This document shows, piece after piece, positions 20,076-61,658 of a stretch of 64,000 nt of DNA. How positions within the stretch are numbered: the stretch's first letter is position 1; every line of letters starts with the position of its first letter. This DNA comes from an uncultured Candidatus Saccharibacteria bacterium. Lineage in GTDB: Bacteria; Patescibacteriota; Minisyncoccia; Phycocordibacterales; DAORIS01. The stretch lies in contig CAZXUH010000001.1 of assembly GCA_964644035.1 (NCBI GenBank), forward strand, positions 259,712 through 323,711, in the 5' to 3' direction. Below the pieces are notes generated by a model. It saw only the letters and a list, made by a program, of their open reading frames with translations. It had not been told where the DNA came from and did no database searches. A program made the position numbers and the translations under genes.

Positions 20076-20092
20076 TAATTATACCATATTGA
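20076..20092 (-). promoter_or_regulatory. Conserved phage extended -10 promoter, copy 2.
   Basis: Minus-strand reading is ATATGGTATAATTATAT (-10 = + 20078–20083). It fires toward the terminator hairpin about 35 nt downstream. A plus-strand TATAAT (20075–20080) overlaps it divergently. Confidence 0.5.
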
Positions 20093-26269: not shown

Positions 26270-26286
26270 TAATTATACCATATTTT
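26270..26286 (-). promoter_or_regulatory. Conserved phage extended -10 promoter, copy 3.
   Basis: Minus-strand reading is AAATATGGTATAATTAT (-10 = + 26272–26277), about 30 nt upstream of the 26234 start. Confidence 0.55.
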
Positions 26287-28878: not shown

Positions 28879-30090
28879 CTAGGCGTTGATGAGAACGTCG
28901 AGGAACTTCTTAGCACCGTCTGCGAAGGTTTTGATACCTGCGAGATATGAGCTAAATACGTTCGTACCACGTCTGTCAGCAGTTACTCTCATGTCAACTT
29001 CCTTCAAATCTTGGATAACAAGATCAATTGCACCTTTCTTACCGAAGTAAGCGTGGATGAAGTTCTTGGACCAAGTGTTGTTGGTGTTCGTGAGAGTACC
29101 AGCGAGTGTCAAACGACCTGAACCTGTACCGACGAGGGTAGCAGTGTCAGATGCGGCTGAGCCGTTAGTTGCAGCAATTCGGAGAACATCACCAAGGATG
29201 ATCTGACTAGCTGTTGAAAGGGCTGTACCGTAAGTTGTCGTTGTACCCGGAGTGTTGATGAGAGCAACAATGTTTGCTCTTGCAGCATCAGCAGAACCTG
29301 AGATCAAGATAGAACCCGGAGTTGTCGTCAAAGTCGTGTTGAATGTGAATACAACACCACCAATTACAACTGTGTCACCATCTGTAGGTGTCTGTGGAAG
29401 GTAGAGATTAGCTTCACCAGTTAGGTTTTCAGAAACGTACATCTGTGCGTTTGATACGTCACCAGTGTAACCATTTTTGAATACTGAACCAGCAAGGTCA
29501 ATGTTCTTACCCAAGAGGTACTGAGCAATGTCAGCAGCAGCGTAAGAGTCAACTACGAAGGCAAGACTTGAGGTAATGTCTTGGTTGTTGAGTCTTCGTA
29601 GCTTTGCTGGCATACGAGTAACCATCTGAGGAACAGTTGTCGAGTTAAGAGTGATAGCTGTACCAGTTGAAGCTGTACCAGCAAGGTCACCATTATCGAA
29701 GTCATAAAGAGCGTTTGTGACTTCATAGAAGCAACGAGCATCGAGGTCAAGAGAAACTTTCTTTGCAATTTCTGCACCGATAGTTTCACCTGGATTCAAT
29801 GGACCAGCCTGTGTGACTTCACCATCTGAGATGTGGAAGACAGCTTCTTTTTCAAGGTTGATTGTAATAAGTTCACTTGTGTCGCTGATAGTATCAATTG
29901 TTGATGCTGAACCGCGAGTAACTGTGCGAACTCGGACGTTGGACATGTCGAATGCGACACGTTCAACTGACTCACCAAACTTAAGCGTAGGCTCAAATCG
30001 AGTGTTCATGATTGGCTTTGCAACAAGTACCTTCTGGAAAACTTCCTGGTACGCATTATCAAAGGCTTCTTTGTAAATAGAGAGAGACAT
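28879..30090 (-). CDS. Major capsid protein (putative).
   Basis: 403 aa, directly downstream of an acidic scaffold-like gene and portal. Gly/Thr/Ala-rich with a probable inserted domain. Assigned by position and composition. Confidence 0.5.
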   Translation of the reverse strand: MSLSIYKEAFDNAYQEVFQKVLVAKPIMNTRFEPTLKFGESVERVAFDMSNVRVRTVTRGSASTIDTISDTSELITINLEKEAVFHISDGEVTQAGPLNPGETIGAEIAKKVSLDLDARCFYEVTNALYDFDNGDLAGTASTGTAITLNSTTVPQMVTRMPAKLRRLNNQDITSSLAFVVDSYAAADIAQYLLGKNIDLAGSVFKNGYTGDVSNAQMYVSENLTGEANLYLPQTPTDGDTVVIGGVVFTFNTTLTTTPGSILISGSADAARANIVALINTPGTTTTYGTALSTASQIILGDVLRIAATNGSAASDTATLVGTGSGRLTLAGTLTNTNNTWSKNFIHAYFGKKGAIDLVIQDLKEVDMRVTADRRGTNVFSSYLAGIKTFADGAKKFLDVLINA

Positions 30091-30973: not shown

Positions 30974-30990
30974 TAATTATACCACAATTG
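30974..30990 (-). promoter_or_regulatory. Conserved phage extended -10 promoter, copy 4 (upstream of the scaffold–MCP operon).
   Basis: Minus-strand reading is CAATTGTGGTATAATTATAT (-10 = + 30976–30981). Confidence 0.55.
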
Positions 30991-33753: not shown

Positions 33754-33770
33754 TAATTATACCACATTTT
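33754..33770 (-). promoter_or_regulatory. Conserved phage extended -10 promoter, copy 5 (upstream of the portal).
   Basis: Minus-strand reading is AAAAATGTGGTATAATTAATAG (-10 = + 33756–33761). Confidence 0.55.
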
Positions 33771-35265: not shown

Positions 35266-35615
35266 AATGCAAGCTTGCGCATATCCTCCAAGTGCTTCTC
35301 AGTCGCTTCAAGTTTCCCTTCAAGATAGCCTTGTTTTGGTTTGATACCAATATTATTAAGAGCATCAGCAAATACTTGTAATTGATCTAGTGTCAATTCA
35401 AGCGTTGGTTTTGATACCGCCACACCACGATGAACAGTCTCGCCGTCAAGAAACTCTACCTTTTCACCTATCTCACGAAATATGTACACATCTTTAGTGA
35501 GTTTGTACCCACTGTCTACAATTTTTATGTTCCATTCATTATTGTTCATATTGTGCTGGTACTGAGAATTGAACTCAGTCTCACTGTTTGGAAAACAGTA
35601 GTGCTGCCGTAACAC
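35262..35615 (-). CDS. Hypothetical protein.
   Basis: 117-aa ORF overlapping the terL start. Confidence 0.3.
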   Translation of the reverse strand: MLRQHYCFPNSETEFNSQYQHNMNNNEWNIKIVDSGYKLTKDVYIFREIGEKVEFLDGETVHRGVAVSKPTLELTLDQLQVFADALNNIGIKPKQGYLEGKLEATEKHLEDMRKLAL

Positions 35616-35623
35616 TTCACCAA

Positions 35624-35827
35624 CTATGCATAGTAAACTCCCTTAGTCGCCTTCTTGTTTGATTTCCAATTCCTTATCTTTCTTTGGACTTTATGAGCCA
35701 TACGAACGCCATGCTTTCTAACATACTTGCATTGAGTGCAATGACAAACACCGAGGGGGTTTCCCCTTCCTTGTGGTCTACCCTTCATAGGCTTCGACTT
35801 TGGGTTGTGTGCAATCGTTCTACTCAT
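35624..35827 (-). CDS. Small, very basic protein with a CHC..QC motif.
   Basis: 67 aa; its start codon lies 2 nt downstream of the tRNA-like gene. Confidence 0.25.
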   Translation of the reverse strand: MSRTIAHNPKSKPMKGRPQGRGNPLGVCHCTQCKYVRKHGVRMAHKVQRKIRNWKSNKKATKGVYYA

Positions 35828-35828
35828 G

Positions 35829-35900
35829 CGGGACCTGTGGGATTTGCACCCACAACCGCTTAATCGACAATCAAGTGCTCCACTGTTGAGCTAAGGTCCC
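35829..35900 (-). tRNA. Phage-encoded tRNA-Asp(GUC)-like gene with a non-canonical T-loop.
   Basis: Hand-folded cloverleaf with acceptor GGGACCU/AGGUCCC, a D-arm, the anticodon arm CUUGA-UUGUCGA-UUAAG (anticodon GUC), and T-arm GUGGG-UGCAAAU-CCCAC. Position 55 is G instead of U and CCA is not encoded. Confidence 0.55.
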
Positions 35901-36487
35901 TAACACAGTGCGTTTCAGCATCTATAACGCACAAACTGTTTTCAGTGTACCGCCATGATATTTCAGACGCTCTTTGTGAAGATAGCGAGGATTTGACAAG
36001 TTGCAAACTACTTTCTAAGGTGGGCATCGCTCCCACTGCCTACTTGTATAGTCACCTCGCATGATTGGCTCACCACGGAACGGCATACCAATCTCTGTCC
36101 GTTTACCCCATAGCGTCTACACTTTTCCGCCATATCTTCACAGAAAGCACCTAAATGAACTGATGGGGAGGTTCCTACCTTTAGAAGATGTTGCTGGTTA
36201 CCCATGCAGCAACCGGACTCGAACCGGTATTACTCCCCCCATCAAATCACTTACATGTTCATGGACAGTTGGGGAAAAGGAGTACTGCTCTCTTTAGAAA
36301 GGACTAATATGAGACTTAGTGCACCTATCTCTCAAAGCCAAGCCGTTCCCCCAACAATCCACGAAAGAGAAGCAGAGAGGGAAAGGGTAGTAAATCGCTA
36401 CGCAAGTTTTTTAAGCCTACCCCTGCTTACTATAAGTATTATTTGCGTAATAATTTAACCACAATAAGGATTCCCCTCCCTACTTCC

Positions 36488-37311: not shown

Positions 37312-37632
37312 TTATTTTTTGTTAAGTGCTAACCAGAATTTTGCAACTGCAACATCTAGATTTGGGTCAAAGATAAAAACTTTCCAATCAAGAGGATTTA
37401 GACTTCCTTCTGTATCTTGGCCAACAATCCATCCATCTTCACCCTTATAGCTTCCTTGTCGTATTGTCCATAAATTCTCCCCACATGCTTCTATAAGCTC
37501 TGAGAGAGTTGGATAAGAAAGCTGTTCGACATCTTTAGGAGTATTAAGAATTTCATTCTGAAAATAAATCCTTAGTGGGTCTTGAGGGTAGCCAGAATCT
37601 TTAAGTTGTTTTGCGAGTTCGTAAGTTACCAT
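37312..37632 (-). CDS. Hypothetical protein.
   Basis: 106-aa ORF. Confidence 0.3.
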   Translation of the reverse strand: MVTYELAKQLKDSGYPQDPLRIYFQNEILNTPKDVEQLSYPTLSELIEACGENLWTIRQGSYKGEDGWIVGQDTEGSLNPLDWKVFIFDPNLDVAVAKFWLALNKK

Positions 37633-38270
37633 ATAATTGATTTATTATGTTGAGCTATTACCGAAGTATCTGCGTATGCTTTGAATCCTAGGCCAATAGC
37701 TTTAGCTATGAAGTGTGTGTCTTCCCCCATGAATATATCTTTGCCTCTGTCATCCTTGTAGAGGAAGCGATACCAAGGCTTAGGCATTTTTTCAAAGACT
37801 GCTCTTTTAATGAGAACACATGAGCCACCGCATCCTTTGATCTGAATTAGCCCTACATTTGGCTCAGTGAACTTGTCATTCATATCCACAGCATTCCATT
37901 TCTTGTAGTAGCCATTTGATTCATTCTTCCTGTTAGCATCGTGCTCTATGATGGGGGTAATGCCTGAGACAATATCCTTATCATGCGAGAGTAGTTTATA
38001 GAGTGCATCCATAGGCGGAATCGTATCTGAGTCTATAAAGAACAGGTGTGTGCAGTCTGATTGAAGAAACTGTTCAACGATCTCGTTACGGGCATTGTCT
38101 ACCGGACACACTGCCATCGTAGGATATATGGACATATTTATATCTCCTTTCAATTGAGCTTGGGCCATCCACTGTAGGACGGTCATAGCAAGAAAAGTAT
38201 GCATACTTCCCATTGTGGGGATTCCTATGAGTATCTTTGGCTTCATGACATTTTGTGACGTAGATTCCAC
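37626..38270 (-). CDS. GT-A fold glycosyltransferase (DxD).
   Basis: 'ILIGIPTMGS' and the 'FFIDSDTIPP' DxD region. Confidence 0.5.
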   Translation of the reverse strand: MESTSQNVMKPKILIGIPTMGSMHTFLAMTVLQWMAQAQLKGDINMSIYPTMAVCPVDNARNEIVEQFLQSDCTHLFFIDSDTIPPMDALYKLLSHDKDIVSGITPIIEHDANRKNESNGYYKKWNAVDMNDKFTEPNVGLIQIKGCGGSCVLIKRAVFEKMPKPWYRFLYKDDRGKDIFMGEDTHFIAKAIGLGFKAYADTSVIAQHNKSIIW

Positions 38271-38389
38271 GGGGTTCTTTTATATATTTTCTTAGACCTC
38301 CTAAATATTGCGTTGGTAAATTCGATTCCCCTTGCTTGGCATAGTGCTTTAATAGTTTGTCGCAAAGCTTTTGATTTTTTCTCGCTCAT

Positions 38390-38959
38390 TTATGTAAAGT
38401 TAGTTGCCTTCCTCTTGCTAAATAGTTTGCTGTCATGCTCGTAGTTATCTGTATTCAGGACGATCTTGTATGTCTCATCCATAGGAGCCTTTCCATTGTT
38501 GACGTGGTTGTGTTGAATCTTTGCACTTGGTACAAAGATAAGTTTGCCTTCGCTTCTAAGTCGTTCTGTAAACTCATTATCTGAGAAGTTGTGGATGTAT
38601 CCTTCGTGTAAGTATTTTCGTATTGTGTCTGTATGAGCTAAAGGATGTTGGCAAAGTTTTTCTCCATGTAATTCATTGAAAGGTTCTGCTGCACCGTCAC
38701 CTTTTGGAAAGGCGGTAATGAACGTATTCCAAAGATTCCAGAGCCAATCTTTCTCGACAACTGTATCGCTCCCTAAGACCACTACGTATCCGTTGATTCC
38801 TTGAAGTGCGTTATGAATTGCTTTTACCCAACCTCCATCTGCGTTTTCATAGATCACTACACAATGCTGGACGTTCTGTGTGTGTTCCTCGATAGATGCA
38901 AGTAACTCTTTAAGTCTTGGTCGGCGATCCTTGGTTGTTGGTATGAGGATATAGATCAT
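38390..38959 (-). CDS. Glycosyltransferase family 2-like protein.
   Basis: 'MIYILIPTTKDR' N-terminus typical of GT2-like enzymes; 189 aa. Confidence 0.4.
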   Translation of the reverse strand: MIYILIPTTKDRRPRLKELLASIEEHTQNVQHCVVIYENADGGWVKAIHNALQGINGYVVVLGSDTVVEKDWLWNLWNTFITAFPKGDGAAEPFNELHGEKLCQHPLAHTDTIRKYLHEGYIHNFSDNEFTERLRSEGKLIFVPSAKIQHNHVNNGKAPMDETYKIVLNTDNYEHDSKLFSKRKATNFT

Positions 38960-39537
38960 AGTTTGACGTATCTCTGTAAGAGAGTTATTCCATGCCTGAC
39001 TGCCCTGTTTGAGTGGAAGTGAATTTGCTGGAACTCTGGGTATGCTTCCTTGATCCAGTTAACGAATGTCAGTTCATCCGGACAGTGGACCCATTCTTTC
39101 TTCTCATTCATATGTCCGAACTCTGCGTTGAAGACATTGCCCCCTATCCATGTACCTGTGTCGTGGACTGCGATGATAGCCTTCTCAGTCAGATCAGGAA
39201 GCATCTTGATAAATGTCTGCTGGTTTAAACTAAGATCATGAGAAGCATCTAAGAAAGCAAAATCAATATTTCTAACATCTACCTCCTCCTGTGACTTGCG
39301 ATAGAAGTGAAAGCGTTGATCTGCGAATACTGGTTGCTTGGTGTTGTCGTAGCTGTGAAGTTCTGAATCGTGATCCATCACTTCGAGCATTTTCATTGCT
39401 GACTTACCCCAGAAGTGTCCAATCTCCACAACAATCTTAGGGTTAGTCATTCGTATCACTGCCTGTAAGAGAAGTGCATCCTCATCAAGTAGCGGCCCCA
39501 ATTCAATATCTCCAAAATAATTACTTCTCATCTCCAA
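38956..39537 (-). CDS. Class I SAM-dependent methyltransferase (Methyltransf_24/TylF-CmcI-like).
   Basis: 'VVEIGHFWGKSA', 'AFLDASHD' (DGDH-like) and 'IAVHDTG'. Pattern paralogous to 16339–16899. Confidence 0.45.
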   Translation of the reverse strand: MEMRSNYFGDIELGPLLDEDALLLQAVIRMTNPKIVVEIGHFWGKSAMKMLEVMDHDSELHSYDNTKQPVFADQRFHFYRKSQEEVDVRNIDFAFLDASHDLSLNQQTFIKMLPDLTEKAIIAVHDTGTWIGGNVFNAEFGHMNEKKEWVHCPDELTFVNWIKEAYPEFQQIHFHSNRAVRHGITLLQRYVKL

Positions 39538-40076
39538 GTTCCTTTGTATTTAGTTATTAAACCGTTATAGAGAACCATGTTCTGTCTTCCATGTTTTATT
39601 TCAAAGATTTCACTCTGAATCGGTAGTACGGGATCAAACTGTAAAGCGTTTGGATCAAGCTTTAAGTACTCCATGTTCCAATGATGCTCTGCGGTGATCG
39701 CTGCTTCCTTATTATCAATCTTTGGAATCCCTATAGCATCGAGGACAGACTTTTTATACTTTCCTAGATATGAATAGAAGCCGGGTGAGAGATGGACTGA
39801 GCCTTCATAGTCAAAGAGCATGTCGAGTAACTTTGGTTCCTTTAAGACGCACGTGTCCATAAGGTGAACAAATTCCGTGAAGATCTCAGCCCCACGCAGA
39901 ATTCCCCCAAGTTCAAACCCATTCCAATCATTGATAACGTTATACGTTCCTTCGATCTCAGGTTTGTATCCACCGTTGGATACAATAAGGACCGGATACA
40001 TATCAGGGATTGAATCAAAACATTCCTTAAGCCAATCTTTAGTATGTTCAGATGTAGTGATTACTATTCCTCTCAT
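39528..40076 (-). CDS. Hypothetical protein within the second glycosylation cassette.
   Basis: 182 aa with no motif. Confidence 0.3.
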   Translation of the reverse strand: MRGIVITTSEHTKDWLKECFDSIPDMYPVLIVSNGGYKPEIEGTYNVINDWNGFELGGILRGAEIFTEFVHLMDTCVLKEPKLLDMLFDYEGSVHLSPGFYSYLGKYKKSVLDAIGIPKIDNKEAAITAEHHWNMEYLKLDPNALQFDPVLPIQSEIFEIKHGRQNMVLYNGLITKYKGTWR

Positions 40077-40912
40077 TTTGTCTCTGCTCCCGTAAGGAGA
40101 TTAAACCATCGTGTTCTGAGTTTTTCGTATTCTATGAAGTAGTCTCCTTCCCCATATTTTTCATTCATCGATACTCCCCTTGCTTCTTTTTGTAAGTTGA
40201 TAAATGGATCACTTGCCCTGTTGTGATGAACTGTAGCGTATCCGGTGACAGCAGCCCAACCTCTCGCATCTATAACTTTCTTCACTTCTATACCACTCCA
40301 TATATCTGCAAAACGATTAATGTTTCCATACATAGGAGCTTGGTAGAAGTACGGTGTCAGTTCTCGCTTAAACGCCACGTTCATAATGCACATAGGAAAG
40401 AGTACTCCCTTAGGGATAGGCATTCTTCGAGGAGTGACCTCAGGTGTTCCGATAACTAACTGAGTTGAAGCATCGAAGTCTGCCACTCCTTTCCACGCAC
40501 CATGAGATAGGACACATTCTGATTCATCTCTGAGGCTGTAAGGGAAACCTCGCATAAATACTTCATGGACTGTATTCATCCATGATATAGGGTATTTCTT
40601 TGAAAGAGCATCTAGGTGATCTTGAATTGTATCCCCATCTGGCAGAACATCGTCGTCAAGGGAGATGATAATATCCGCACCATCTTTGTATGCTTGATAG
40701 AAACCAAGATTACGGACACCATCATTGAAGTTGTAGATAAGGTCCTTATCCTTCCCCATCACACTCTCAAGTGTCGTACCATTCACAGTTGGATTTTCTC
40801 CATCTTTGACAATGTACAAACTGACGTTATGTTTTTTGAATAGAGATTCCCACGCCTCAAGAAACTTTTTAAGCTGTTCTTCCCTAATCGTCGGTACGAC
40901 GACTGCTATCAT
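40073..40912 (-). CDS. Reversibly-glycosylated-polypeptide/UDP-arabinopyranose-mutase-like (GT75-like) protein.
   Basis: The N-terminus 'IAVVVPTIREEQLKKFLEAWESLF' matches the RGP family 'IVIPTIR...FLE.W..FF' signature, and a DxD-like 'LDDD' region is present. Confidence 0.4.
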   Translation of the reverse strand: MIAVVVPTIREEQLKKFLEAWESLFKKHNVSLYIVKDGENPTVNGTTLESVMGKDKDLIYNFNDGVRNLGFYQAYKDGADIIISLDDDVLPDGDTIQDHLDALSKKYPISWMNTVHEVFMRGFPYSLRDESECVLSHGAWKGVADFDASTQLVIGTPEVTPRRMPIPKGVLFPMCIMNVAFKRELTPYFYQAPMYGNINRFADIWSGIEVKKVIDARGWAAVTGYATVHHNRASDPFINLQKEARGVSMNEKYGEGDYFIEYEKLRTRWFNLLTGAETK

Positions 40913-41024
40913 TTACTGACAACTATCGCAAAGCGCTGCTTCCGCAGGATCGACAGGACAAACTGGCTGGTTATTGCTAACTGGATTTGATACTTGTGAT
41001 GTTTCTTGATTCATAAATAGTTAG

Positions 41025-41041
41025 ATTAGTGTATATATTAT
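41025..41041 (-). promoter_or_regulatory. Conserved phage extended -10 promoter, copy 6 (upstream of the GT75-like/glycosylation cassette 2 operon).
   Basis: Minus-strand reading is AAAAAATGGTATAATATAT (-10 = + 41027–41032). Confidence 0.5.
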
Positions 41042-41301
41042 ACCATTTTTTTATCTTTTTTCCTAAGACAAATTAGGCATATTTTCGAACCTTTTATAGC
41101 CACAAATGGGTTTCCACACTTAATACATTTTGGGTACTTCTTTTGCTTTTTCGTCACCACATATTCCTCTGGCGGTACAGGGTCCATGAATGGGGGTTTG
41201 AACTCCAGCAATGGTTTCTCAGGTACGATCTTAATATTTAGTAGGTACTTCTTTTTCATTTCAGTATCTGAGGCAATTCTGTAACTTTTCCTGTTGGCCA
41301 C
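41038..41301 (-). CDS. Small Zn-ribbon protein.
   Basis: C-terminal 'CIKCGN...CLICL' CxxC pairs. Confidence 0.3.
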   Translation of the reverse strand: MANRKSYRIASDTEMKKKYLLNIKIVPEKPLLEFKPPFMDPVPPEEYVVTKKQKKYPKCIKCGNPFVAIKGSKICLICLRKKDKKMV

Positions 41302-41990
41302 TTACCACAATTAATACACCAGTACTTCTGACGTGTTCCACTGATTGTTTTGAATGTACCTCTTTTCTGTAGTCGATCACTTCCACAATTAGGGCAGCAA
41401 TCTAACTGGTACAAGCGAGGATGGTTCTTGATCCAAGGACGAAGCTGTTTGTAGACCAATTCAAGTAACACCACATCTTGCTTGTTATACTTGACCATCT
41501 TTCTCCAAGATTCACTGTCACCATCCATACATCCTTTCCAAAGTCCAAATCCACCTGTTTCGTATTTCCTGCCGATTCCCAAATAATCCCCCAGATCATC
41601 CAGCTTGTTTGAATTAAACTTAAAGTTGTTTCTGGCTACCTTTAGAGTATCTACTGTCTGATACGGTGAAGGAGGTGTTAGGCCAGCTTTAGCGAAGAAA
41701 GCATTTACCTTCTTAATGTCGAAAGCGTCTCCGTTGTGAGCAATAACTACGTCTGCTTCATCGAGCAAGTCCCAAAGTTCTTTTATAAGTTCCTTGTCAT
41801 TGAATTTGTCCTTCTTGTACAGAGGAAAGTCTGGGAGTGAACGAGCGTGTACAAACTTTTCATCAAGCCATTTATAAGCGAATGAAAGCATACTGCCCTG
41901 TCTTACGTACTGGAGTACGTCCTGTTCATACTTACCCCAGATGTATCCTAAATTTGGTGATGTCTCTATGTCGAATAATAATATCTTCAT
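41256..41990 (-). CDS. DEDDy-type 3'-5' exonuclease (DnaQ-like) with a C-terminal zinc ribbon.
   Basis: Exo I 'LLFDIETSPN', Exo II 'VIAHNGDAFD' and Exo III 'YNKQDVVLLELVY'. C-terminal 'CCPNCGS...CINCGK'. Confidence 0.7.
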   Translation of the reverse strand: MKILLFDIETSPNLGYIWGKYEQDVLQYVRQGSMLSFAYKWLDEKFVHARSLPDFPLYKKDKFNDKELIKELWDLLDEADVVIAHNGDAFDIKKVNAFFAKAGLTPPSPYQTVDTLKVARNNFKFNSNKLDDLGDYLGIGRKYETGGFGLWKGCMDGDSESWRKMVKYNKQDVVLLELVYKQLRPWIKNHPRLYQLDCCPNCGSDRLQKRGTFKTISGTRQKYWCINCGKWPTGKVTELPQILK

Positions 41991-43314: not shown

Positions 43315-43647
43315 TTATCTACTTATTTTGTTATTAACGTACTCATAAGCTGCTATGTTGAAGAAGACTGCTGCAGCGTGATCCTCGTCTACATCTCCTT
43401 CTGCCCACTGGAAGAAGTGACGGTAGGCTGATGCCCTAAAACGATTCATTTCTTCTTCTGAGTTGGCCAACTGCCAATTCCTTTCCCCGTACTTCACTGC
43501 GCCTCTAGCATAGAGTTCAGCAATCCTTTTAAGCATAGGGACCGGAATAAGATCGTAGCGAGGTTTATCATCTGCCACATCACGATTCATCCCAGACTCA
43601 AACTTCACACGTTTTCCAGAATCCTTAGTTAGATACGTAGTAGGCAT
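43315..43647 (-). CDS. Phage-associated protein resembling the N-terminal domain of dATP/dGTP diphosphohydrolases.
   Basis: 'RYDLIPVPMLKRIAELYARGAVKYGERNW' matches the conserved RYDLIP...GA.KYG..NW core of that domain family. Recalled from memory, not searched. Confidence 0.35.
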   Translation of the reverse strand: MPTTYLTKDSGKRVKFESGMNRDVADDKPRYDLIPVPMLKRIAELYARGAVKYGERNWQLANSEEEMNRFRASAYRHFFQWAEGDVDEDHAAAVFFNIAAYEYVNNKISR

Positions 43648-43828
43648 AACTCCTTGGTATTACTTTGTTAATTTTTCCTTTCTTTAAACCTTGACCACAA
43701 TCAGGACAACCCTGTCCTCGACACGCAAGCTTCCAACAATTACAGATAAACATCACGCCTTCCTTTTCTTTAGACTTCAGAGATAATATTGGAGATTTTT
43801 TCTTTGTAATAATTAATTTTTGACTCAT
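43625..43828 (-). CDS. Small Zn-ribbon protein.
   Basis: 'CNCWKLACRGQGCPDCGQ'. Confidence 0.25.
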   Translation of the reverse strand: MSQKLIITKKKSPILSLKSKEKEGVMFICNCWKLACRGQGCPDCGQGLKKGKINKVIPRSYAYYVSN

Positions 43829-44192
43829 ATTCTAATTGGGTAAATTCTTTTGTAATCTTTCCCTTGTATTGATTATCTTTGAACCTTTCGTACAAGGAAT
43901 CTGCTGTACCTTCTCCAAACCTCCTATCAAGCTCATACTTGTATCCGACAGAAGCATCTGGGGTCCATTTAGGGTTATTACACCTTTTGCACTGTGCGTT
44001 GACATTCTTCTCGTCAAATAAAAGACCAAACCCACAATGACCTGCCGCAATATAATGACCAGCATCACAGAGTTTCCAGTGAGCTAGGGGCAAACCACAT
44101 GAGACACAAGTCCCATACTTGTAGTAGTCACGCATCCGGATGAACTGACTGAACACTTTCCAGAACTTTCCTTTATTTCCTTTGTATCTCAA
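43770..44192 (-). CDS. NinG/HNH-like zinc-binding nuclease-related protein.
   Basis: 'C.SCG...CDAGHYI.AGHCG...DEKNVNAQCKRCN' Cys/His pattern resembles NinG-type recombination proteins/HNH nucleases. Confidence 0.35.
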   Translation of the reverse strand: MRYKGNKGKFWKVFSQFIRMRDYYKYGTCVSCGLPLAHWKLCDAGHYIAAGHCGFGLLFDEKNVNAQCKRCNNPKWTPDASVGYKYELDRRFGEGTADSLYERFKDNQYKGKITKEFTQLEYESKINYYKEKISNIISEV

Positions 44193-49659: not shown

Positions 49660-50103
49660 CTACTCAGCAACGATCTTTACGGTAAAGAATCCGTTATTGT
49701 CCCCTATCTTGACGCTGATCTTGTGATCACCTACTTCCTTGATTGGCTTTTCGAGAAGCATGTAGACAGGATTGATATCTATCTTGCTTGAAGCTTTGAG
49801 AGCAGCAGCGACTTCTTCTTTTCCAATACCCTTGAACAAGTGACCTTTTTCATTGGCTGGAGCAGCGATCTCTACTACCACTTCGCTGATCTTCTTGAGA
49901 TTTTTGATAAGAGCTGCTTCTTGTTCTGCCTTGAGCTTGGTTTCTGTAGCTCTGAATGCTTCGAGCTTTGCAATCTCCTGAGCATTGGCCTTTACTGCCA
50001 AGTTGCGAGGCAAGAGAAAGTTGGTGGCATATCCGTCTGAAACTTCCTTCATGTCGAAGCGTTTGCCGACGCCTGACACATCTTTGTAAAATATGACTTT
50101 CAT
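49660..50103 (-). CDS. rplI: 50S ribosomal protein L9.
   Basis: 'MKVIFYKDVSGVGKRFDMKEVSDGYATNFLLP' L9 N-domain and length. Confidence 0.8.
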   Translation of the reverse strand: MKVIFYKDVSGVGKRFDMKEVSDGYATNFLLPRNLAVKANAQEIAKLEAFRATETKLKAEQEAALIKNLKKISEVVVEIAAPANEKGHLFKGIGKEEVAAALKASSKIDINPVYMLLEKPIKEVGDHKISVKIGDNNGFFTVKIVAE

Positions 50104-50127
50104 AATGAGCTTATATACTACTGATTT

Positions 50128-51354
50128 TTAACGAGAAAGCAACTCGACAGCTTTCAGAAACTGAGCGTCTTTTTTGGCTGCAATATCTTCCTGAGTGACC
50201 TTCACTTCGACGTCGGGTATGAGCCCTCCTTCTGATATAGAAACACCTTTTGGTGTGAGCCATCGCGCAACCGTGATCTTGAGAGAGGTATCAGCCGATG
50301 TCGACATGTATTCCTGCACAGAACCCTTGCCAAAGGTCTTTGCACCGACAAGTTGAGCTTTATTGTATTCACGAAGTGCCCCAGCCAAGATTTCTGCCGC
50401 AGAAGCTGAGCCACCATCGACAAGAATAATCGTCTTTACGTCATTGCCTATCACATTGTAGCCCTTGCTACGGTGATAGACGTTCTCTACTCCACCCTTG
50501 AACTCTTCGGTCACGACCGTACTACCTACAGGCAAGAACCAACTTGCCATATCGACAGCAGCATCGAGATATCCACCAGGATTGCCACGGAGGTCAATAA
50601 TCAGCTTTTTATTGCCCGAAAGGACAAATTGCCTTATTGCCTGCTGGAAGAGCCCTGGAGACTGAGCGGTAAATGAATAGAGTCTAATACTAAAGATACC
50701 GTTGGGAAGGACTTCGGTTTCAATCGTAGGAATACTAATCACATCTCTTGTAACAGAAATTTCTTGAGCATGATCACTCTGAGCTCGAAGAATCGTAATT
50801 CTGACGACCGTGCCCTTCTTACCTTTTATAAGTTTGATCGATTCATCAATCGTAAGATTGTTGGTAAGCGTATCATCGATCTTCAAGATCTTGTCTCCTG
50901 GCAATATACCTGCCTTTTCAGCTGGACTGCCTTTGAGAGGTGCGACAACCGTCAAAATATCGTCTTTAATAGACACTTCCATACCTACACCTTCAAAACT
51001 TCCTTCTATTTCACTTTCAAATGATTTGGTTTCTTCTGGTGGGAAGAATGTTGTATATGGATCGCCATATGCTGCCGCAAGGCCTTGGATTGCTCCGTAG
51101 AGTTTCTCCTGATCGGTAATAGGCGGGCGATTCTTTGTATCAGCATACTTTTGATCGAGAAGATTCCAGACTTTCCAGAAAAGGGTGAAGTCTGTGGTTG
51201 TAGCATTTGGATTGTAGACACCAGTAAGTGTTGTGGGGACCTGCACCGACTGAGCCTCCGTATTGCCCCATCGATAACCAACAACGACGGCAACAATAAC
51301 GATGATCAATGTCGATACAATACGTCCAGTATGATATTTTTTGGTTGTGTCCAT
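50128..51354 (-). CDS. ctpA: Carboxy-terminal processing (S41, tail-specific) protease.
   Basis: PDZ-like middle region, 'IDLRGNPGGYLDAAV' S41 motif and an N-terminal anchor. Confidence 0.75.
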   Translation of the reverse strand: MDTTKKYHTGRIVSTLIIVIVAVVVGYRWGNTEAQSVQVPTTLTGVYNPNATTTDFTLFWKVWNLLDQKYADTKNRPPITDQEKLYGAIQGLAAAYGDPYTTFFPPEETKSFESEIEGSFEGVGMEVSIKDDILTVVAPLKGSPAEKAGILPGDKILKIDDTLTNNLTIDESIKLIKGKKGTVVRITILRAQSDHAQEISVTRDVISIPTIETEVLPNGIFSIRLYSFTAQSPGLFQQAIRQFVLSGNKKLIIDLRGNPGGYLDAAVDMASWFLPVGSTVVTEEFKGGVENVYHRSKGYNVIGNDVKTIILVDGGSASAAEILAGALREYNKAQLVGAKTFGKGSVQEYMSTSADTSLKITVARWLTPKGVSISEGGLIPDVEVKVTQEDIAAKKDAQFLKAVELLSR

Positions 51355-52321
51355 GCGCCTGATTTTCTCAAAATTGCGGCGTTACGTCAAAGCACGCTAT
51401 AATATATTCATGACCAATAAGCGGACCTACAACGATATCATTTGGATAGACATGCTCTCTCCAACTCCCGAAGAAGTCCGCGAGCTGATTGAGACCTACA
51501 ATTTGAACCCTGATGTGAGCAATAACATGCTCCTTCCCTCCCCCAATGAGCAAATCTATGATTATAAAGGCTTGGTTTATCTTGTCTTACATTTTCCCCA
51601 CAAAATAAAAAATCGTGAAGAAGTGATCATTCACGAAGTCGACTTCTTAATGAGTAAAAATGTCATTACAACGATTCATTATGATCATTCCGATGCAATT
51701 GATCGTTTTGCCAAATATTTTGAAGTCAGTTCAGTATTAAAGAAGAATGAAATCCCTGATGCTGGCTATCTTTTCTTCGAACTCATCAAGCAGCTCTATG
51801 GCGCTGTAAAGGATGCTACGGAAACGATCGACAGTGAATTGCAGAGTATAGAGCCCAAAGTCTTTCATGGCCGAGAAAAAGAGGTCGTAAGTCACCTCTC
51901 CGTGCTCAACCACTCACTTTTGCAATTTAAGCAAATCGTAAGTCCGCAAAAAGAATTGTTGGAAATGGCTGCTATTTATGGAGAAAATATGTTTGGTAAA
52001 GAATTCAAAGATATAGGCAAAATGCTTTTGGCCGAACATGCCAAAGCGCTCAAAGAGATCGAATATCGCAAAGAAAATCTCAAAGAACTCTGGGATACCA
52101 ACGATACTCTTCTTTCTACCAAGCAAAATGAAATCATGAAGAATTTGGCCATGATTTCCTTTATCACCTTCCCTCTCACTCTTATTGTCGCCATCTTTGA
52201 ACTCTTCACTAGTCTCGAGGGTCGCACCGGCGGAGCTGATTATTTCTGGAAGCTCATGAGCCTCTTGCTTATCGCTACTGGTCTCATGATCTTCTTCTTT
52301 AAACGAAAACGATGGATATAA
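51341..52321 (+). CDS. CorA-family divalent cation transporter-like protein; true start probably downstream at about 51410.
   Basis: Soluble N-terminal domain with two C-terminal TM helices in a CorA-like arrangement ('AIYGENMF...MISFITFPLTLIVAIF'), but the canonical GMN motif is absent or degenerate. Confidence 0.45.
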   Translation: MVVSMRLIFSKLRRYVKARYNIFMTNKRTYNDIIWIDMLSPTPEEVRELIETYNLNPDVSNNMLLPSPNEQIYDYKGLVYLVLHFPHKIKNREEVIIHEVDFLMSKNVITTIHYDHSDAIDRFAKYFEVSSVLKKNEIPDAGYLFFELIKQLYGAVKDATETIDSELQSIEPKVFHGREKEVVSHLSVLNHSLLQFKQIVSPQKELLEMAAIYGENMFGKEFKDIGKMLLAEHAKALKEIEYRKENLKELWDTNDTLLSTKQNEIMKNLAMISFITFPLTLIVAIFELFTSLEGRTGGADYFWKLMSLLLIATGLMIFFFKRKRWI

Positions 52322-53718
52322 CAGACATACGCCTTACCAATACTCTCTCCGGCACCAAGGAGCGTTTTGAGCCTATACAGCCAGGACATGTCGGCATGTA
52401 TCATTGTGGCCCGACGGTCTATCACTATGCTCATATCGGCAATATGCGTGCCTACGTGCTTGCAGATTTGCTTCGCAAGACATTTGAACTTCATGGCTAT
52501 CAAGTGAAGCAGGTTATAAACATTACTGATGTTGGACATCTTACCGACAGCGATACGAGTGATCTTGGTGATGACAAAGTAGAAAAAGCTGCCAAAGCAG
52601 AAAATAAAAGTGCTAAAGAAATTACAAAAAAATACTACGATGTATTTAGAGATGATTTGTCAAAACTCAATATAAAGACCGACAGCACCATATTCCCTTG
52701 GGCGACTGAACATATCAAAGAGCAGATTGATATGATTTCTACGCTTGAGAAGAAAGGCTATACCTATAAAACATCAGACGGTATTTATTTTGATACTTCA
52801 AAATATGAAGCCTATGGCATGCTAGGTAATATTGATATTAAAGGATTAAAGGAAGGCGCGAGAGTGACGGTCAATGAAGAAAAGAAAAATCCTACTGACT
52901 TTGCTCTTTGGAAATTCTCCAAGAAAGGCGAGCAGCGTCTACAAGAATGGGAATCACCGTGGGGCAAAGGTTTTCCTGGTTGGCATATAGAGTGCTCGGC
53001 GATGTCTATAAAATATCTCGGCCAGACTTTTGATATTCATACTGGGGGCATCGATCATATTCCTGTTCATCACAACAATGAAATCGCTCAATCTGTCTGT
53101 GCCACGGGCGAACCTTATGTGCGATTCTGGCTTCACAATGCATTTATCAATATTACCGATGAAAAAATTTCAAAATCTCTCGGCAATACCATTACCCTTT
53201 CACAAATCATAGAAAAAGGTTTCTCTCCCCTTGCACTGCGGTATTGGTTCCTTGGTGCACGATATAGCACGCAAATGAATTTTACTTGGGAAGCACTCGA
53301 AGATAGCCAGAGATCTTTGGAAAAGCTCAATCGCTGGTACAGTACCCTCGAAAAGCCATCTCAGAAAATCGCAACCACAAGCAATACCTATGAGCAGTCT
53401 TTTATTTCTAAAATTAGTGATGATCTCGATACACCACAAGCTCTAGCCACACTTTGGCAGCTTACCAAGGACACTGAACTTTCAGATGAAATAAAATACA
53501 GCACAGCAAACAAAATCAACAGTGTTCTAGGTATTCTTTCAGAAAACACTCAGAGCGCCGATGTATTTTCAGATGAAGTATTTGATCTTATTGAGAAACG
53601 CAATGAAGCTCGAAAAAATAAAGATTTCAAAGCATCAGACGAACTCCGCGATGCTTTACTTAAACACAATATCCAATCAGAAGATTCCAACGATGGTAGT
53701 AGATATTTTCACGCATAA
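52312..53718 (+). CDS. cysS: Cysteinyl-tRNA synthetase.
   Basis: HIGH-type 'YHYAHIGNMRAY' and KMSKS-type 'KISKSLGN' motifs; Zn ligand pattern. Confidence 0.85.
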   Translation: MDITDIRLTNTLSGTKERFEPIQPGHVGMYHCGPTVYHYAHIGNMRAYVLADLLRKTFELHGYQVKQVINITDVGHLTDSDTSDLGDDKVEKAAKAENKSAKEITKKYYDVFRDDLSKLNIKTDSTIFPWATEHIKEQIDMISTLEKKGYTYKTSDGIYFDTSKYEAYGMLGNIDIKGLKEGARVTVNEEKKNPTDFALWKFSKKGEQRLQEWESPWGKGFPGWHIECSAMSIKYLGQTFDIHTGGIDHIPVHHNNEIAQSVCATGEPYVRFWLHNAFINITDEKISKSLGNTITLSQIIEKGFSPLALRYWFLGARYSTQMNFTWEALEDSQRSLEKLNRWYSTLEKPSQKIATTSNTYEQSFISKISDDLDTPQALATLWQLTKDTELSDEIKYSTANKINSVLGILSENTQSADVFSDEVFDLIEKRNEARKNKDFKASDELRDALLKHNIQSEDSNDGSRYFHA

Positions 53719-53916
53719 TAATGGAAAATAAAAAGAAACATAGAATATTCCAATACCTACTCGGCACTGGTATGGCTGTAGGTGCAGCATTTGTTTCAGT
53801 CTTTGATTTTATAACAGGAAAAACGGATCACCCTATTACCTTTGAACAAAAGACTGGCGAGAAAACGGAAAAGGAAGACGAGATTGGTTTGGATCAATAA
53901 ACTGATCTATTAAAAA

Positions 53917-54492
53917 CTACTTAGAAAGAGTCTGACAGAATTCTTTGACTTTCTGCTCAAAAGCTTCGAGCGTGCCACCATTGTCTATGGTCACATCAGC
54001 ATTGGCCGCGATCTTAGGAATATCAAGCTCAGTTCTGACTTTTTCTTCTTCCAGAAAGGTCTCATAGCTCGCTGTCGCCTCTCCTACATATACCTTGCGA
54101 GCTTTGGTGCGTTCATAGCGTACTTCAGGAGGTGCAGTTACATACACAATCATATTTTTAGGGAATTCTCTGATCATTTTTTCATCCGAGAGCCAGCGCA
54201 CACCATCGAGTACGATTATGTCGGCATCAGTGGCTTTTATTCGCGCAGATACAGCATTGGTAAGCGTTCCCAGACCAAATTTTTCATTCATAACAATCGC
54301 CAATTGCTGAAGATTGTGTCGAGTTCTTTCTATACTCCACAAAGCTAATGTTTCAGAAAGAATATCTGAAAATGTAATATGAACGACTTTTTTATCTTTT
54401 ATATATTGAGCGAGAAATTTTGCACATGTCTCTTTGCCGCTTCCCTTCTCTCCGACAATTCCGATCAAGAGTGGCTGCTTGTCTGTAGTCAT
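53917..54492 (-). CDS. P-loop NTPase, nucleoside/nucleotide kinase-like.
   Basis: Walker A 'IGIVGEKGSGKET'; 191 aa. Confidence 0.5.
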   Translation of the reverse strand: MTTDKQPLLIGIVGEKGSGKETCAKFLAQYIKDKKVVHITFSDILSETLALWSIERTRHNLQQLAIVMNEKFGLGTLTNAVSARIKATDADIIVLDGVRWLSDEKMIREFPKNMIVYVTAPPEVRYERTKARKVYVGEATASYETFLEEEKVRTELDIPKIAANADVTIDNGGTLEAFEQKVKEFCQTLSK

Positions 54493-54612
54493 ATATAAAT
54501 AGTAGCATATAAATTTTCATAAAATAAAAATATCACTCTTGCATTTATTGACATTTAAGATAAGATGGTGTCTGGTTTAGTTCATTTAAACTCACATAAG
54601 GAAAGGATTCGT

Positions 54613-55116
54613 ATGAATCTGAGACACGTACGTGACCATGCTCAAGAACTGTTTTACCGTCTTTTTGGTAAGAGCCATGTGTGTGGCTGCGGTCACAAGA
54701 CCAAAAAGAAAGCGTTACTAACCATTCATGGAAAGAAAGGTGTGTACCACGTCACTGATTTGGACTACTGCCCGCAATGTTGGGCAAATGCCGCAATCAA
54801 ATGCGCGTGGTGCGCCGACACGATCGTGCCAGGAGAAGCGATAACTCTCAAAACTCCTGCGAAGGATTTCCAAGTTCCCAACCATGCGCAGATCTACAAA
54901 AAAGAACCGCGTCTGCAGTTAGTTGGTTGTATGCATTGCGACCCTGACGCAATCATGGATAGAGCGGGCTTCTGGGTCATGCCCGGCAAAGTCCTTCGTG
55001 CGGCTTCACCGACTGAAATAATTGCTAATGGAATGCTTGGCGAAGATGAAGTCTATACGTGCAACAACATTATGGATCCGACTCAAGCGATCCTGATCCC
55101 TGATGAAGTGTCTTAA
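54613..55116 (+). CDS. Cys-rich (putative Zn-binding) hypothetical protein, member of a paralogous pair.
   Basis: 'CGCGHK...CPQCW...CAWCADTIVPGE...CMHCDP'. Paralog of 61187–61636. The start is chosen at the Met after a GGA-rich RBS (the track ORF begins at 54565). Confidence 0.45.
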   Translation: MNLRHVRDHAQELFYRLFGKSHVCGCGHKTKKKALLTIHGKKGVYHVTDLDYCPQCWANAAIKCAWCADTIVPGEAITLKTPAKDFQVPNHAQIYKKEPRLQLVGCMHCDPDAIMDRAGFWVMPGKVLRAASPTEIIANGMLGEDEVYTCNNIMDPTQAILIPDEVS

Positions 55117-55390
55117 CTCACACAATTACAAAGGAGATTCTATGTCTATTACTCCAGCCCAATTGATTTTCATTCTGATAGCGATAGCTGCAGCAGCACT
55201 TATATGGATTGCTGTGTTTATATCCTATGTCCGAGAACACTGGAAGAGGTGTCCTGACAAAGACTGTGGCAGCATGTGGTGTTGGAAAAAGACCAAGGAA
55301 TATGGGGGTCCTCAGTGCGAAGACATTCAGGTCTATTCATGCTTTAGTTGCGGGAAGCAAACTCCGCACTTCGACGGGTATGTGAATTGA
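55103..55390 (+). CDS. Small membrane protein with a Cys-rich C-terminus.
   Basis: TM helix 'LIFILIAIAAAALIWIAVFI' followed by 'CPDKDCG..CW...CFSCG'. Confidence 0.35.
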   Translation: MKCLNSHNYKGDSMSITPAQLIFILIAIAAAALIWIAVFISYVREHWKRCPDKDCGSMWCWKKTKEYGGPQCEDIQVYSCFSCGKQTPHFDGYVN

Positions 55391-55543
55391 AGCCTTATTC
55401 TAAGCGCGAAATCTCAATGGTTTCGCGTTTTTTTATTGCATATTATATAAGAAAAAGTACTCTACACACTTAATACACACCTTTTACACCTCCACAAGTG
55501 GTGCCCCATTTTCAATAGATGATAAAATAGTTCTCAAACATCT

Positions 55544-56923: not shown

Positions 56924-56924
56924 T

Positions 56925-57539
56925 ATGTCACCTTTTGACCGACTGATTGAAATATTTAGAAAATTCCCAGGCATTGGTCCTCGCCAAGCTCGGCGTTTTG
57001 TCTATCATCTTATTCGTCTCTCAGAAAACGACACCAAACAGTTTGCCGAAGGTCTTCTGTTACTCAAAAAAAGTTTTAAAGAATGCACGGGTTGCCACCG
57101 ATACTTCTCTTCGTCACACAATGATACCCTCTGCTCAATATGTTCAGACAAAAATCGCACTGATAAAGAACTGATGATTGTCAGTCATGACAGCGATCTC
57201 GATGCTATAGAAAAAAGCGGTACCTATAAGGGTCAATATTTTGTCCTTGGCGGTACGATACCAATACTGGAAAAAGTTCCTACGTATATACGAGAAAGAG
57301 AACTCAAAGCTCGAGTCAGTGATCTTGCATCCAAAAATCTCAGCGAGATTATTATTGCCATGAGTGTCACCGCAGAAGGTGAACAGACTGTTTCGTATAT
57401 TAAAAATATCATCACACCTATTGCTGGAGAAAAAGTCTCTATTTCAACCCTTGGCCGTGGTGTCTCCACTGGCAGCGAACTCGAATATGCCGACAGCGAA
57501 ACTATTTCATACGCATTGGCTGGAAGGAAAAAGGTATGA
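56925..57539 (+). CDS. recR: Recombination protein RecR.
   Basis: 'FDRLIEIFRKFPGIGPRQARRF' HhH, C4 zinc finger 'C.GC...C..C' and Toprim region. Start taken at the Met directly after the dnaB stop. Confidence 0.8.
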   Translation: MSPFDRLIEIFRKFPGIGPRQARRFVYHLIRLSENDTKQFAEGLLLLKKSFKECTGCHRYFSSSHNDTLCSICSDKNRTDKELMIVSHDSDLDAIEKSGTYKGQYFVLGGTIPILEKVPTYIRERELKARVSDLASKNLSEIIIAMSVTAEGEQTVSYIKNIITPIAGEKVSISTLGRGVSTGSELEYADSETISYALAGRKKV

Positions 57540-57544
57540 CGCCT

Positions 57545-57640
57545 CCTCCCTCATTCCCTCCTCTAAAGAGGAGGGAGGTCTCTGAAGGGTGCGCACTGTT
57601 TATTGTTCCCCTCCTCATTCTGAGGAGGGGTTAGGGGAGG
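57545..57640. terminator. Pair of CCTCCTC/GAGGAGG palindromic hairpins between convergent recR and rplU.
   Basis: CCCTCCTC-TAAA-GAGGAGGG and CCCCTCCTC-ATTCT-GAGGAGGGG stem-loops. Confidence 0.45.
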
Positions 57641-57645
57641 AGGTG

Positions 57646-57960: not shown

Positions 57961-58039
57961 AGAAAATTATATTACCCTATTTATCGAAAATAATCAAATA
58001 AAAAGCCTGTCCGCACCCAATGGTACAGACAAGCTCATG

Positions 58040-61636: not shown

Positions 61637-61658
61637 CCCTGTTTTACCAAGATCACAA

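Follow-up and report, generated by a model that had tools for sequence, protein, structure and literature searches.

A short GT75-family protein in a predicted prophage glycosylation cassette of a Patescibacteria chromosome

The window analysed here is a 64,000-nt stretch of a Patescibacteria (candidate phyla radiation, CPR) chromosome that carries an integrated prophage of ~42 kb. Between the replication genes of this prophage (among them the exonuclease gene at 41256-41990) and its terS, terL and portal genes lie five co-directional minus-strand genes at 37626-40912, hereafter cassette 2, which places the cassette inside the prophage and not in a host-derived island. All five open reading frames (ORFs) were confirmed, on the minus strand, at the positions where a first-pass annotation of the sequence had put them; the first four are coupled by overlapping stop and start codons, and a 119-bp gap precedes the last. 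The leading gene encodes a short protein of family GT75, which holds the reversibly glycosylated polypeptides (RGP) and UDP-arabinopyranose mutases (UAM) of plants and the bacterial mutase MtdL. Because the 182-aa gene originally listed as unknown is, by structure prediction, a compact GT-A glycosyltransferase, the predicted content of cassette 2 is one mutase acting on nucleoside diphosphate (NDP) sugars, three GT-A enzymes and one Methyltransf_24 methyltransferase, as follows.

40073-40912, minus strand: GT75 (RGP/UAM/MtdL-type) protein, short form, 279 aa, predicted Mn2+-dependent NDP-sugar pyranose-furanose mutase
39528-40076, minus strand: compact GT-A-fold glycosyltransferase, 182 aa, candidate furanosyltransferase (AlphaFold2 model and Foldseek)
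38956-39537, minus strand: class I S-adenosylmethionine-dependent methyltransferase (Methyltransf_24, O-methyltransferase/CmcI-like), 193 aa
38390-38959, minus strand: small GT-A/GT2-like glycosyltransferase, 189 aa
37626-38270, minus strand: GT-A glycosyltransferase with a D80-S81-D82 motif, 214 aa, true start possibly M9 at 38246

Profile, sequence-to-structure and fold searches all placed the 279-aa protein in GT75 and not in an ordinary GT2 or GT-A family, as the first-pass annotation had proposed from an N-terminal RGP hallmark that we find as 'VVVPTIR...FLEAW'. Against the Pfam RGP profile (PF03214), whose gathering score is 23.8, the protein scored 120 bits (E 1.7e-34) over positions 7-284 of the 342 in the profile. 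Its sequence matches in the PDB were rice OsUAM2 (8CID, the best match) and MtdL (7XPR, 7YUA and related entries), and a search of the PDB with the family profile recovered OsUAM2 at E 9e-23 and MtdL at ~E 1e-18. An AlphaFold2 (AF2) model built from 39 homologues reached a predicted local distance difference test (pLDDT) score of 90.4, and in Foldseek searches it matched MtdL (E 7.5e-17, template modelling (TM) score 0.72-0.74) and OsUAM2 (TM 0.76, the highest score), with E-values for the two between 7.5e-17 and 2.3e-15. The next fold was far behind (E 2e-5, TM 0.42).

The functional residues of MtdL have been defined in the paper that describes its structure, where loss of any of D87, D195, R257 and D260 abolishes activity (PMC9937993). 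We mapped them onto the window protein by alignment to 7YUA (native MtdL numbering) and read their conservation from the 39-sequence family alignment, with the following correspondence.

MtdL D87: window D64
MtdL R90: window R67
MtdL D109-D111: window D86-D88
MtdL R159 (glycosylated, nucleophilic Arg): window R121
MtdL D195: window D145
MtdL R257: window R200
MtdL D260 (proposed base): window D203
MtdL H287: window H230
MtdL R289: window R232

The mapped catalytic residues are invariant across the 39 family members, with the exception of R232, which is conserved in at least 90%. By alignment, the Mn2+ site consists of D86-D87-D88 and H230 and matches D109-111 and H287 of MtdL, and R121, within 'MRGFPYSLR', aligns with MtdL R159 (OsUAM1 R158); D64, D145, R200 and D203 are likewise invariant, and every residue whose mutation abolishes the activity of MtdL or AtRGP2 (PMC9937993) falls in an invariant column of the phage family. 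The window protein thus has the Pfam family and fold of MtdL and Hyg20 (the bacterial GDP-L-galactose/GDP-L-fucose pyranose-furanose mutases; 7XPR, 7YUA), together with the triple Asp plus His metal site, the catalytic Arg, the Asp base, the β-phosphate Arg and the Asp at the D87 position of MtdL. With the plant class-1 RGP/UAM enzymes (OsUAM1, AtRGP1-3 and the solved relative OsUAM2, 8CID) it shares the N-terminal 'PTIR...FLExW', the 'RG[FY]P[FY]SLR' around the reversibly glycosylated Arg and the 'H-x-[KR]-A-S-[ND]-P-F-x-N-L' after the metal-binding His. It also keeps the equivalents of R257 and H287, which the OsUAM2 chain of 8CID lacks in the alignment and whose loss in AtRGP5 goes with inactivity (PMC9937993). 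Identity is low on both sides, ~23% to MtdL and ~22% to the plant enzymes, and the setting differs as well: a viral, prokaryotic context and a phage glycosylation operon, in contrast to plants and to the antibiotic gene clusters of MtdL and Hyg20.

Two sites, T13 and S86, govern base choice in MtdL, and the S86D change abolishes its binding of GDP (PMC9937993). The window protein has Pro7 at the first, as plants do, and Asn63 at the second, where plants have Asp. Because these residues resemble plant UAM more than the GDP-specific MtdL, the donor nucleotide is, with moderate confidence, probably UDP, in which case the substrate would be host UDP-galactopyranose or UDP-L-arabinopyranose. An equivalent of MtdL H292 is absent from the window protein and apparently from the plant enzymes too.

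For the neighbouring genes we used a comparison set of 72 related loci and the window, in which all ORFs were clustered, recurrent clusters were annotated and each locus was viewed to ±10 kb. The 182-aa protein had no match in Pfam, PHROG or NCBIfam, and its 49 homologues are all unannotated, with an invariant D74 in 'HLMDTC'. Its AF2 model (pLDDT 96.4) resembled the fucosyltransferase WrtF (E 1e-5, TM ~0.6) in Foldseek searches, and also RmlT, SpsA and a GT8 protein, so that this gene now reads as a GT-A glycosyltransferase. It is the commonest immediate neighbour of the GT75 gene in the related loci: it lies directly downstream in seven loci besides the window and nearby in L013 and L069, and tblastn located a homologue ~9 kb from the GT75 gene in L010. 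Homology between the 182-aa protein and other proteins that follow GT75 elsewhere (clusters c49, c125, c51, c131 and c28) was considered and found no support in hhalign.

The 193-aa protein passed the Pfam thresholds of Methyltransf_24 (30.5 bits against 26.3) and Methyltransf_3 (24.1 against 22) and aligned with the Methyltransf_24 cluster c2, which recurs beside GT75 genes, at 98.7% in hhalign; we regard it as a probable sugar O-methyltransferase. Of the initial TylF/CmcI-like call, the methyltransferase part stands, and the match to CmcI is only weak. The suggested paralogy with the gene at 16339-16899 holds as remote homology (hhalign 88.7%, E 2.5e-6), whereas a recent duplication was rejected on a non-significant BLASTP match (E 5.3). 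The last two genes were sub-threshold in Pfam (GT2 for the 189-aa protein, Anp1 and GT2 for the 214-aa protein), and their designation as glycosyltransferases is backed by hhalign to the GT2 cluster c3 (94.6% and 96%, respectively) and by PHROG matches (phrog_14945 glycosyltransferase, E 7e-6; phrog_1574, E 3.5e-22). The 189-aa protein also aligned with the N-terminal half of the 182-aa GT-A enzyme at 85.4%, and the DSD motif noted earlier in the 214-aa protein is present as D80-S81-D82. Both genes are conserved together in L003, L007, L009 and L028.

We then looked at how widely the GT75 gene and its surroundings are distributed. Among isolated phages the family is rare, whereas metagenomes hold many members. 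A megablast search with cassette 2 against 50,697 phage records gave no match, and tblastn against the same records gave only five, all weak. Metagenomic collections held 935 homologues of the GT75 protein at 90% clustering, and an exhaustive search yielded 1,318 clusters at 50% identity; for 331 clusters, mostly 280-330 aa long, E was ≤1e-30. A pattern scan detected the short-branch GT75 on at least 61 IMG/VR viral contigs but gave only seven hits among 185,579 species-representative genomes, from unrelated phyla, with Saccharibacteria and a further contig of ~0.5 Mb included. The earlier view of GT75 as essentially plant or archaeal is outdated, since the bacterial MtdL and Hyg20 have been characterised (PMC9937993) and the short branch is widespread in phage contigs. 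Our literature search found no paper discussing a phage RGP/UAM; the sole mentions of viral GT75 that it turned up are CAZy annotations of 'auxiliary' genes from soil viromes (PMC11032446, PMC12016548).

The close subfamily, defined by at least 43% identity, comprises 44 loci. Glycosyltransferase or methyltransferase genes lie within two genes of GT75 in 40 of them, and 34 have a gene for terminase, portal, capsid or adaptor no more than 10 kb away. The cluster stands between the major capsid gene and the adaptor in ~13 loci of SU10-type context (L073 too) and between portal and capsid in the HK97-type loci L019 and L020. L009 and L028 have it between terL and portal, L007 has it a short way upstream of terL, and in the window it is upstream of terS. 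Three unrelated types of structural module host it. L007 repeats the five-gene order of the window at 36-66% identity.

A distant GT75 subfamily (31-37% identity, 320-380 aa; L040, L046, L051, L054, L057, L058, L063 and L065, at about position 10001 of each) has as its neighbours genes for DNA polymerase III alpha, a GT1-like protein and a P-loop protein on large phage contigs (up to 436 kb) and, judged by this other context, may have a different role. In five loci (L017, L018, L024, L027 and L039), the GT75 cluster or its vicinity includes a short gene for an NAD-dependent epimerase/dehydratase (cluster c30, e.g. L018:1654-2439). Its product, for example a 4-epimerase, may act one step earlier and form the pyranose substrate; the gene has no counterpart in the window. 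The representatives P0292, P0346 and P0347 are 635-806 aa long with two profile-matching stretches and may be domain fusions or tandem duplications. In L005 and L010, a 765-825-aa protein with a LAGLIDADG homing-endonuclease domain (cluster c105, e.g. L010:12162-14639) is encoded just before the putative portal gene, the position of terL in sister loci, and is possibly an intein-containing terminase.

The prophage contains a second set of sugar-modifying genes, cassette 1, which is a probable functional partner of cassette 2 and was assigned by Pfam and hhalign.

15428-18899, minus strand: cassette 1
18120-18899, minus strand: GT2 glycosyltransferase
17557-18168, minus strand: Methyltransf_11 methyltransferase
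16892-17572, minus strand: GT-A-like protein
16339-16899, minus strand: Methyltransf_24-like protein
15428-16357, minus strand: GT2 glycosyltransferase

The first-pass annotation had treated the two cassettes as distinct. In five relatives (L001, L002, L016, L018 and L068), the GT75 gene is directly flanked by homologues of cassette 1 genes and so embedded in a cluster of that type; because of this arrangement a functional distinction is improbable, and the simplest reading of the two cassettes of the window is a single functional set divided in two. None of the 11 cassette 1 and cassette 2 proteins tested showed a membrane segment (maximum KD19 value 1.43, compared with 2.5-2.9 for the host FtsW and MraY controls), and all are predicted from their sequences to be soluble. 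Directly downstream of cassette 1 are the genes of two Ser-rich repeat proteins.

13830-15437, minus strand: fibre-like protein with a Laminin_G_3 (ConA-like) domain and ~290 aa of Ser-rich repeats (SSSVSSSVSPSTSV...), candidate acceptor
11606-13828, minus strand: 740-aa protein with two Ser-rich repeat tracts (~190 aa in total), second candidate acceptor

The first of these genes starts before the final GT2 gene of cassette 1 has ended. Ser-rich tracts are classic substrates of O-glycosylation, as in the Ser-rich repeat proteins (SRRPs) of streptococci and in mucins, and because the tracts of the window are of this kind and flank the glycosyltransferase cluster we propose the two proteins as its putative acceptors. 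Ser/Pro-rich proteins also flank the GT75-containing cluster in L002 (270, 1357 and 547 aa), L018 and L072, and one lies ~9 kb away in L015. The plus strand of 11606-15437 reads as acidic T/D/E repeats, which is how a repeat finder reports the region. Directly upstream of cassette 1, a collagen-like protein with G-X-Y repeats (18907-19602) has its own extended -10 site and is a conceivable glycosylation target.

Upstream of cassette 2 we located two further features.

41037-41045, minus strand: extended -10 promoter-like site TGGTATAAT, one of six exact copies, putative promoter
40913-41014, minus strand: 33-codon ORF (MNQETSQVSNPVSNNQPVCPVDPAEAALCDSCQ) between the promoter-like site and the GT75 gene, uncertain as a real gene

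As a sequence feature, the promoter that had been attributed to the cassette is real. The six sites (19641-19653, 20076-20088, 26270-26282, 30974-30986, 33754-33766 and 41037-41045; consensus aaaatRTGGTATAATta) are all on the minus strand and within the prophage, five in the structural region and one before cassette 2, with no copy in the replication module or in the host flanks. A 13-nt longer form of the core occurs five times against 0.15 expected, and a simple sigma-70 scan missed the sites because they have no -35 element. This distribution fits co-regulation of cassette 2 with the structural genes, without proving it. Cassette 2 had been assigned to the early region, which is not correct: it heads the packaging and structural block, and its promoter type is common to five sites of the structural region. 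The 33-codon ORF, absent from the first-pass annotation, ends in CPVDPAEAALCDSCQ, and its stop codon abuts the GT75 start codon (TAAATG). It is conserved beside the GT75 gene in none of the 72 related loci and may be a leader peptide or a chance ORF.

The window had been viewed as a phage genome. A free phage genome is ruled out by host housekeeping genes at both ends: MraY, FtsW, MurG, GltX and an M23 peptidase on the left (1-5.8 kb), and ribosomal protein L9, an S41 peptidase, CorA, CysS, DnaB, RecR and RmuC on the right (from 49.7 kb on). These chromosomal flanks (1-7300 and 49660-64000) are Paceibacterota-like, and the prophage extends roughly from 7.4 to 49.6 kb, with approximate boundaries; a search for att direct repeats around it found none that was convincing. 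The identical GT75 protein and the host CysS are on record together on a single NCBI contig of 568,144 bp, and the closest named relatives of this CysS, at no more than 60% identity, belong to Candidatus Paceibacterota, Pacebacteria and Taylorbacteria, which identifies the host as a member of the Patescibacteria. Three of its genes serve as landmarks.

7907-8770: tyrosine integrase
28879-30090: capsid protein
41256-41990, minus strand: DNA polymerase exonuclease subunit, replication module

Along the minus strand, the order is replication-type genes (NinG, a protein with a dATP/dGTP-diphosphohydrolase domain and the exonuclease subunit), the promoter-like site and cassette 2, two small genes, terS, two tRNAs, terL, an SU10-type portal, scaffold, capsid and tail genes, the collagen-like protein, cassette 1, the two Ser-rich fibre-like proteins, a lysin and the integrase. 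In the replication module, the NinG-like protein is encoded at 43770-44192, and the protein encoded at 43315-43647 matches the N-terminal domain of dATP/dGTP diphosphohydrolase (PF18909, 57.8 bits), a hint at manipulation of the nucleotide pool. The tRNAs, tRNA-Gly(TCC) and tRNA-Asp(GTC), lie in 35553-36487 between terS and terL; ~590 bp of this interval (35901-36487) have no convincing ORF and no Rfam match, and an Rfam scan of the window returned the tRNAs and nothing else.

Taking all this evidence together, our judgement tips slightly towards the view that the GT75 protein is an NDP-pyranose-to-furanose mutase that feeds the cytoplasmic O-glycosylation of virion proteins and belongs to a late-expressed phage module. 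By analogy with MtdL and the plant UAMs, Mn2+ would be held by D86-D88 and H230, and the nucleophile R121 and the base D203 would open the NDP-pyranose and let it re-close as the NDP-furanose, so that a host UDP-pyranose would become a UDP-furanose. The translationally coupled 182-aa GT-A enzyme would act as a furanosyltransferase and use this product at once, an immediate consumption that we propose because NDP-furanoses form only as minor products. Two further GT-A enzymes would extend the glycan and the Methyltransf_24 enzyme would O-methylate a sugar, and cassette 1, with its two GT2, one GT-A-like and two methyltransferase-type genes, would join in both extension and O-methylation. The predicted product is a methylated, furanose-containing O-glycan on virion proteins, built in the cytoplasm during late expression, for which the two Ser-rich-repeat fibre proteins at 11606-15437 would be the most likely acceptors, with capsid proteins as possible ones in relatives.

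Several observations weigh against this proposal, the support for which comes from sequence, structure prediction and synteny. The window protein is 70-100 aa shorter than the characterised GT75 enzymes (279 against 376 aa in MtdL) and lacks most of the long C-terminal helical domain: ~49 residues with two predicted helices (236-251 and 257-274) follow H230, compared with ~85 residues in MtdL, and the Pfam match ends at 284/342. The dimer interface lies where that domain begins, and mutations in it reduced the activity of MtdL and abolished that of AtRGP2 (PMC9937993). S228/Q229 of MtdL are replaced by I176/M177 (G/I in plants), and position 64 is Asp, as in MtdL, where the active plant enzymes have Ser91, and the S91D change inactivates AtRGP2 (PMC9937993); because the sugar pocket is such an MtdL/plant hybrid, the substrate is not readable from the sequence. 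We found no nucleotide-sugar synthesis gene within the prophage. The TGGTATAAT site is a generic strong host-type -10 element and gives no proof of late timing. Finally, Ser-rich proteins occur in only five of the 72 related loci, and cassette 2 of the window adjoins terS, 20 kb from the proposed acceptors.

The first-pass annotation had offered three functions for the cassette: a virion glycan, modification of the host envelope or modification of DNA. Comparative synteny favours the first. Within it, the acceptor of the glycan could be the capsid or some other structural protein, on the model of mycobacteriophage Che8, with the Ser-rich fibres left unglycosylated. Glycosylation of a capsid has a precedent in the passages of PMC11256854 that cite Freeman et al. 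2023. SU10-like and HK97-like relatives moreover carry the cluster beside the major capsid gene and have no Ser-rich protein within 10 kb. We nonetheless hold an arrangement confined to such acceptors to be somewhat unlikely, since Ser-rich repeat proteins, with tracts of the kind generally known to be O-glycosylated, physically flank the glycosyltransferase cluster in the window, L002 and L018; capsid and Ser-rich acceptors are also not mutually exclusive.

Lysogenic conversion, in which the prophage would express the cassette to remodel a host envelope glycan (a wall polysaccharide, a teichoic-acid-like polymer or an S-layer glycoprotein), for instance against superinfection, appears distinctly unlikely. 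Many temperate phages carry glycan-modifying genes, as in gtrABC-type serotype conversion. The element is indeed an integrated prophage with an integrase, and the homologue P0033 stands alone at an apparent prophage/host junction; soil-virome papers, too, label viral GT75 genes as 'cell wall' genes (PMC11032446). Neither cassette, however, encodes a flippase, a polyprenyl-phosphate transferase or any membrane protein. Cassette 2 runs in the same direction as terS, terL and portal, a long way from the integrase/att end, and in relatives the cluster has a location usual for late genes, with capsid and adaptor, or portal and capsid, on either side. A cytoplasmic precursor would still be within reach of soluble enzymes, so that these points only weaken the envelope reading.

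It is also very improbable, in our view, that the GT75 protein serves mainly as an arginine (auto)glycosyltransferase or protein primer and does not supply an NDP-furanose. GT75 enzymes have both activities, AtRGP2 acts on UDP-Glc as a transferase only (PMC9937993), and the autoglycosylated arginine is conserved as R121. In the proposed mechanism, though, the mutase cycle itself passes through the autoglycosylated state (PMC9937993), all residues of the mutase chemistry (the D203 base, D145, D64 and R200) are invariant, and the gene shows tight linkage to ordinary GT-A transferases, which depend on a donor. DNA hypermodification, by which the transferases would glycosylate (e.g. arabinosylate) modified phage bases to evade restriction, can hardly be credited: arabinosyl-hydroxymethylcytosine is known in phage RB69, cassette 2 abuts the replication module with its dATP/dGTP diphosphohydrolase-type protein (43315-43647) and the distant GT75 subfamily adjoins DNA polymerase III alpha genes in large phage contigs, but the scanned prophage ORFs include no hydroxymethylase, thymidylate-synthase-like or other base-modifying enzyme (41-50 kb holds no further ORF of at least 200 aa and none long enough that went unscanned, small ORFs having been scanned in part), loci of the close subfamily show linkage to capsid, portal and adaptor genes and not to replication genes, and a sugar O-methyltransferase with at least five glycosyltransferases fits an oligosaccharide better than a base adduct.

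The proposed glycosylation of virion proteins has its nearest known counterpart in the mycobacteriophages Che8 and Rita, where, according to the passages of PMC11256854 that cite Freeman et al. 2023, phage-encoded soluble glycosyltransferases modify the phages' own structural proteins and form a glycan coat. As in the Che8-type systems, the glycosyltransferases are linked to structural genes, with cassette 2 directly upstream of terS, terL and portal; the differences lie in the Patescibacteria host, in larger clusters of up to 10 glycosyltransferase and methyltransferase genes and in the Ser-rich repeat fibres as likely acceptors. We know of no report of a GT75 mutase in the Che8 and Rita systems, and none surfaced in our literature searches. 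The window also resembles the O-glycosylation of SRRPs (Fap1/GspB, GtfA/B), where long Ser-rich repeats are encoded beside soluble cytoplasmic glycosyltransferases. In contrast to the SRRPs, which are cell-wall-anchored adhesins, the window proteins are phage fibre-like with a Laminin_G_3 domain, and we found neither a GtfA/GtfB-type GT-B (GT4) pair nor an accessory Sec (SecA2/SecY2) component in either cassette; the window system may therefore work like the SRRP system without being a member of it. The parts of gtr/O-antigen conversion (a GtrA flippase, a GtrB bactoprenol transferase and an integral-membrane glycosyltransferase) are without counterpart, no membrane component being present among the 11 cassette proteins. 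The role proposed for the GT75 protein, supply of an NDP-furanose to a linked furanosyltransferase, is that of the FAD-dependent UDP-galactopyranose mutase (Glf/UGM). That enzyme is unrelated in fold and cofactor, and GT75 needs only Mn2+/Mg2+ and no reduced flavin (PMC9937993).

The enzyme family and phage-encoded glycosylation as a kind of system are known; the compact, apparently virus-centred GT75 variant is new. To our knowledge, GT75 mutases alone make NDP-furanoses without a flavin. Work on them has been confined to plants and two antibiotic pathways (PMC9937993), and a compact branch of ~280 aa that is borne by phages and comprises hundreds of clusters would widen the biology of the family; its short enzymes would also offer small soluble tools for the synthesis of NDP-furanoses. 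Because the cluster consistently lies within the virion modules of at least three unrelated phage lineages, our data suggest that phage glycan coats are commoner and, with furanoses and O-methyl sugars, chemically richer than one would expect from the few mycobacteriophage examples. Recognition of the host, stability of the particle and visibility to the immune system could all be influenced by such coats, and the link to the Ser-rich fibres provides a concrete, testable acceptor. As a tentative generalisation, to which we give less than an even chance, a mainly virus-borne GT75 branch may supply UDP-furanose (galactofuranose, L-arabinofuranose or a sugar new to the family) for mucin-like O-glycan phage coats, carried here by the Ser-rich tail fibres. 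If true, this would be the first furanose-containing virion glycan and the first physiological role of GT75 outside plant cell walls and two actinomycete antibiotics. Patescibacteria hosts have very small genomes and a phage biology that is almost unexplored, and the same finding, if true, would count as evidence that phages infecting ultra-small bacteria carry their own genes for tailoring nucleotide sugars because their hosts are unable to supply this function.

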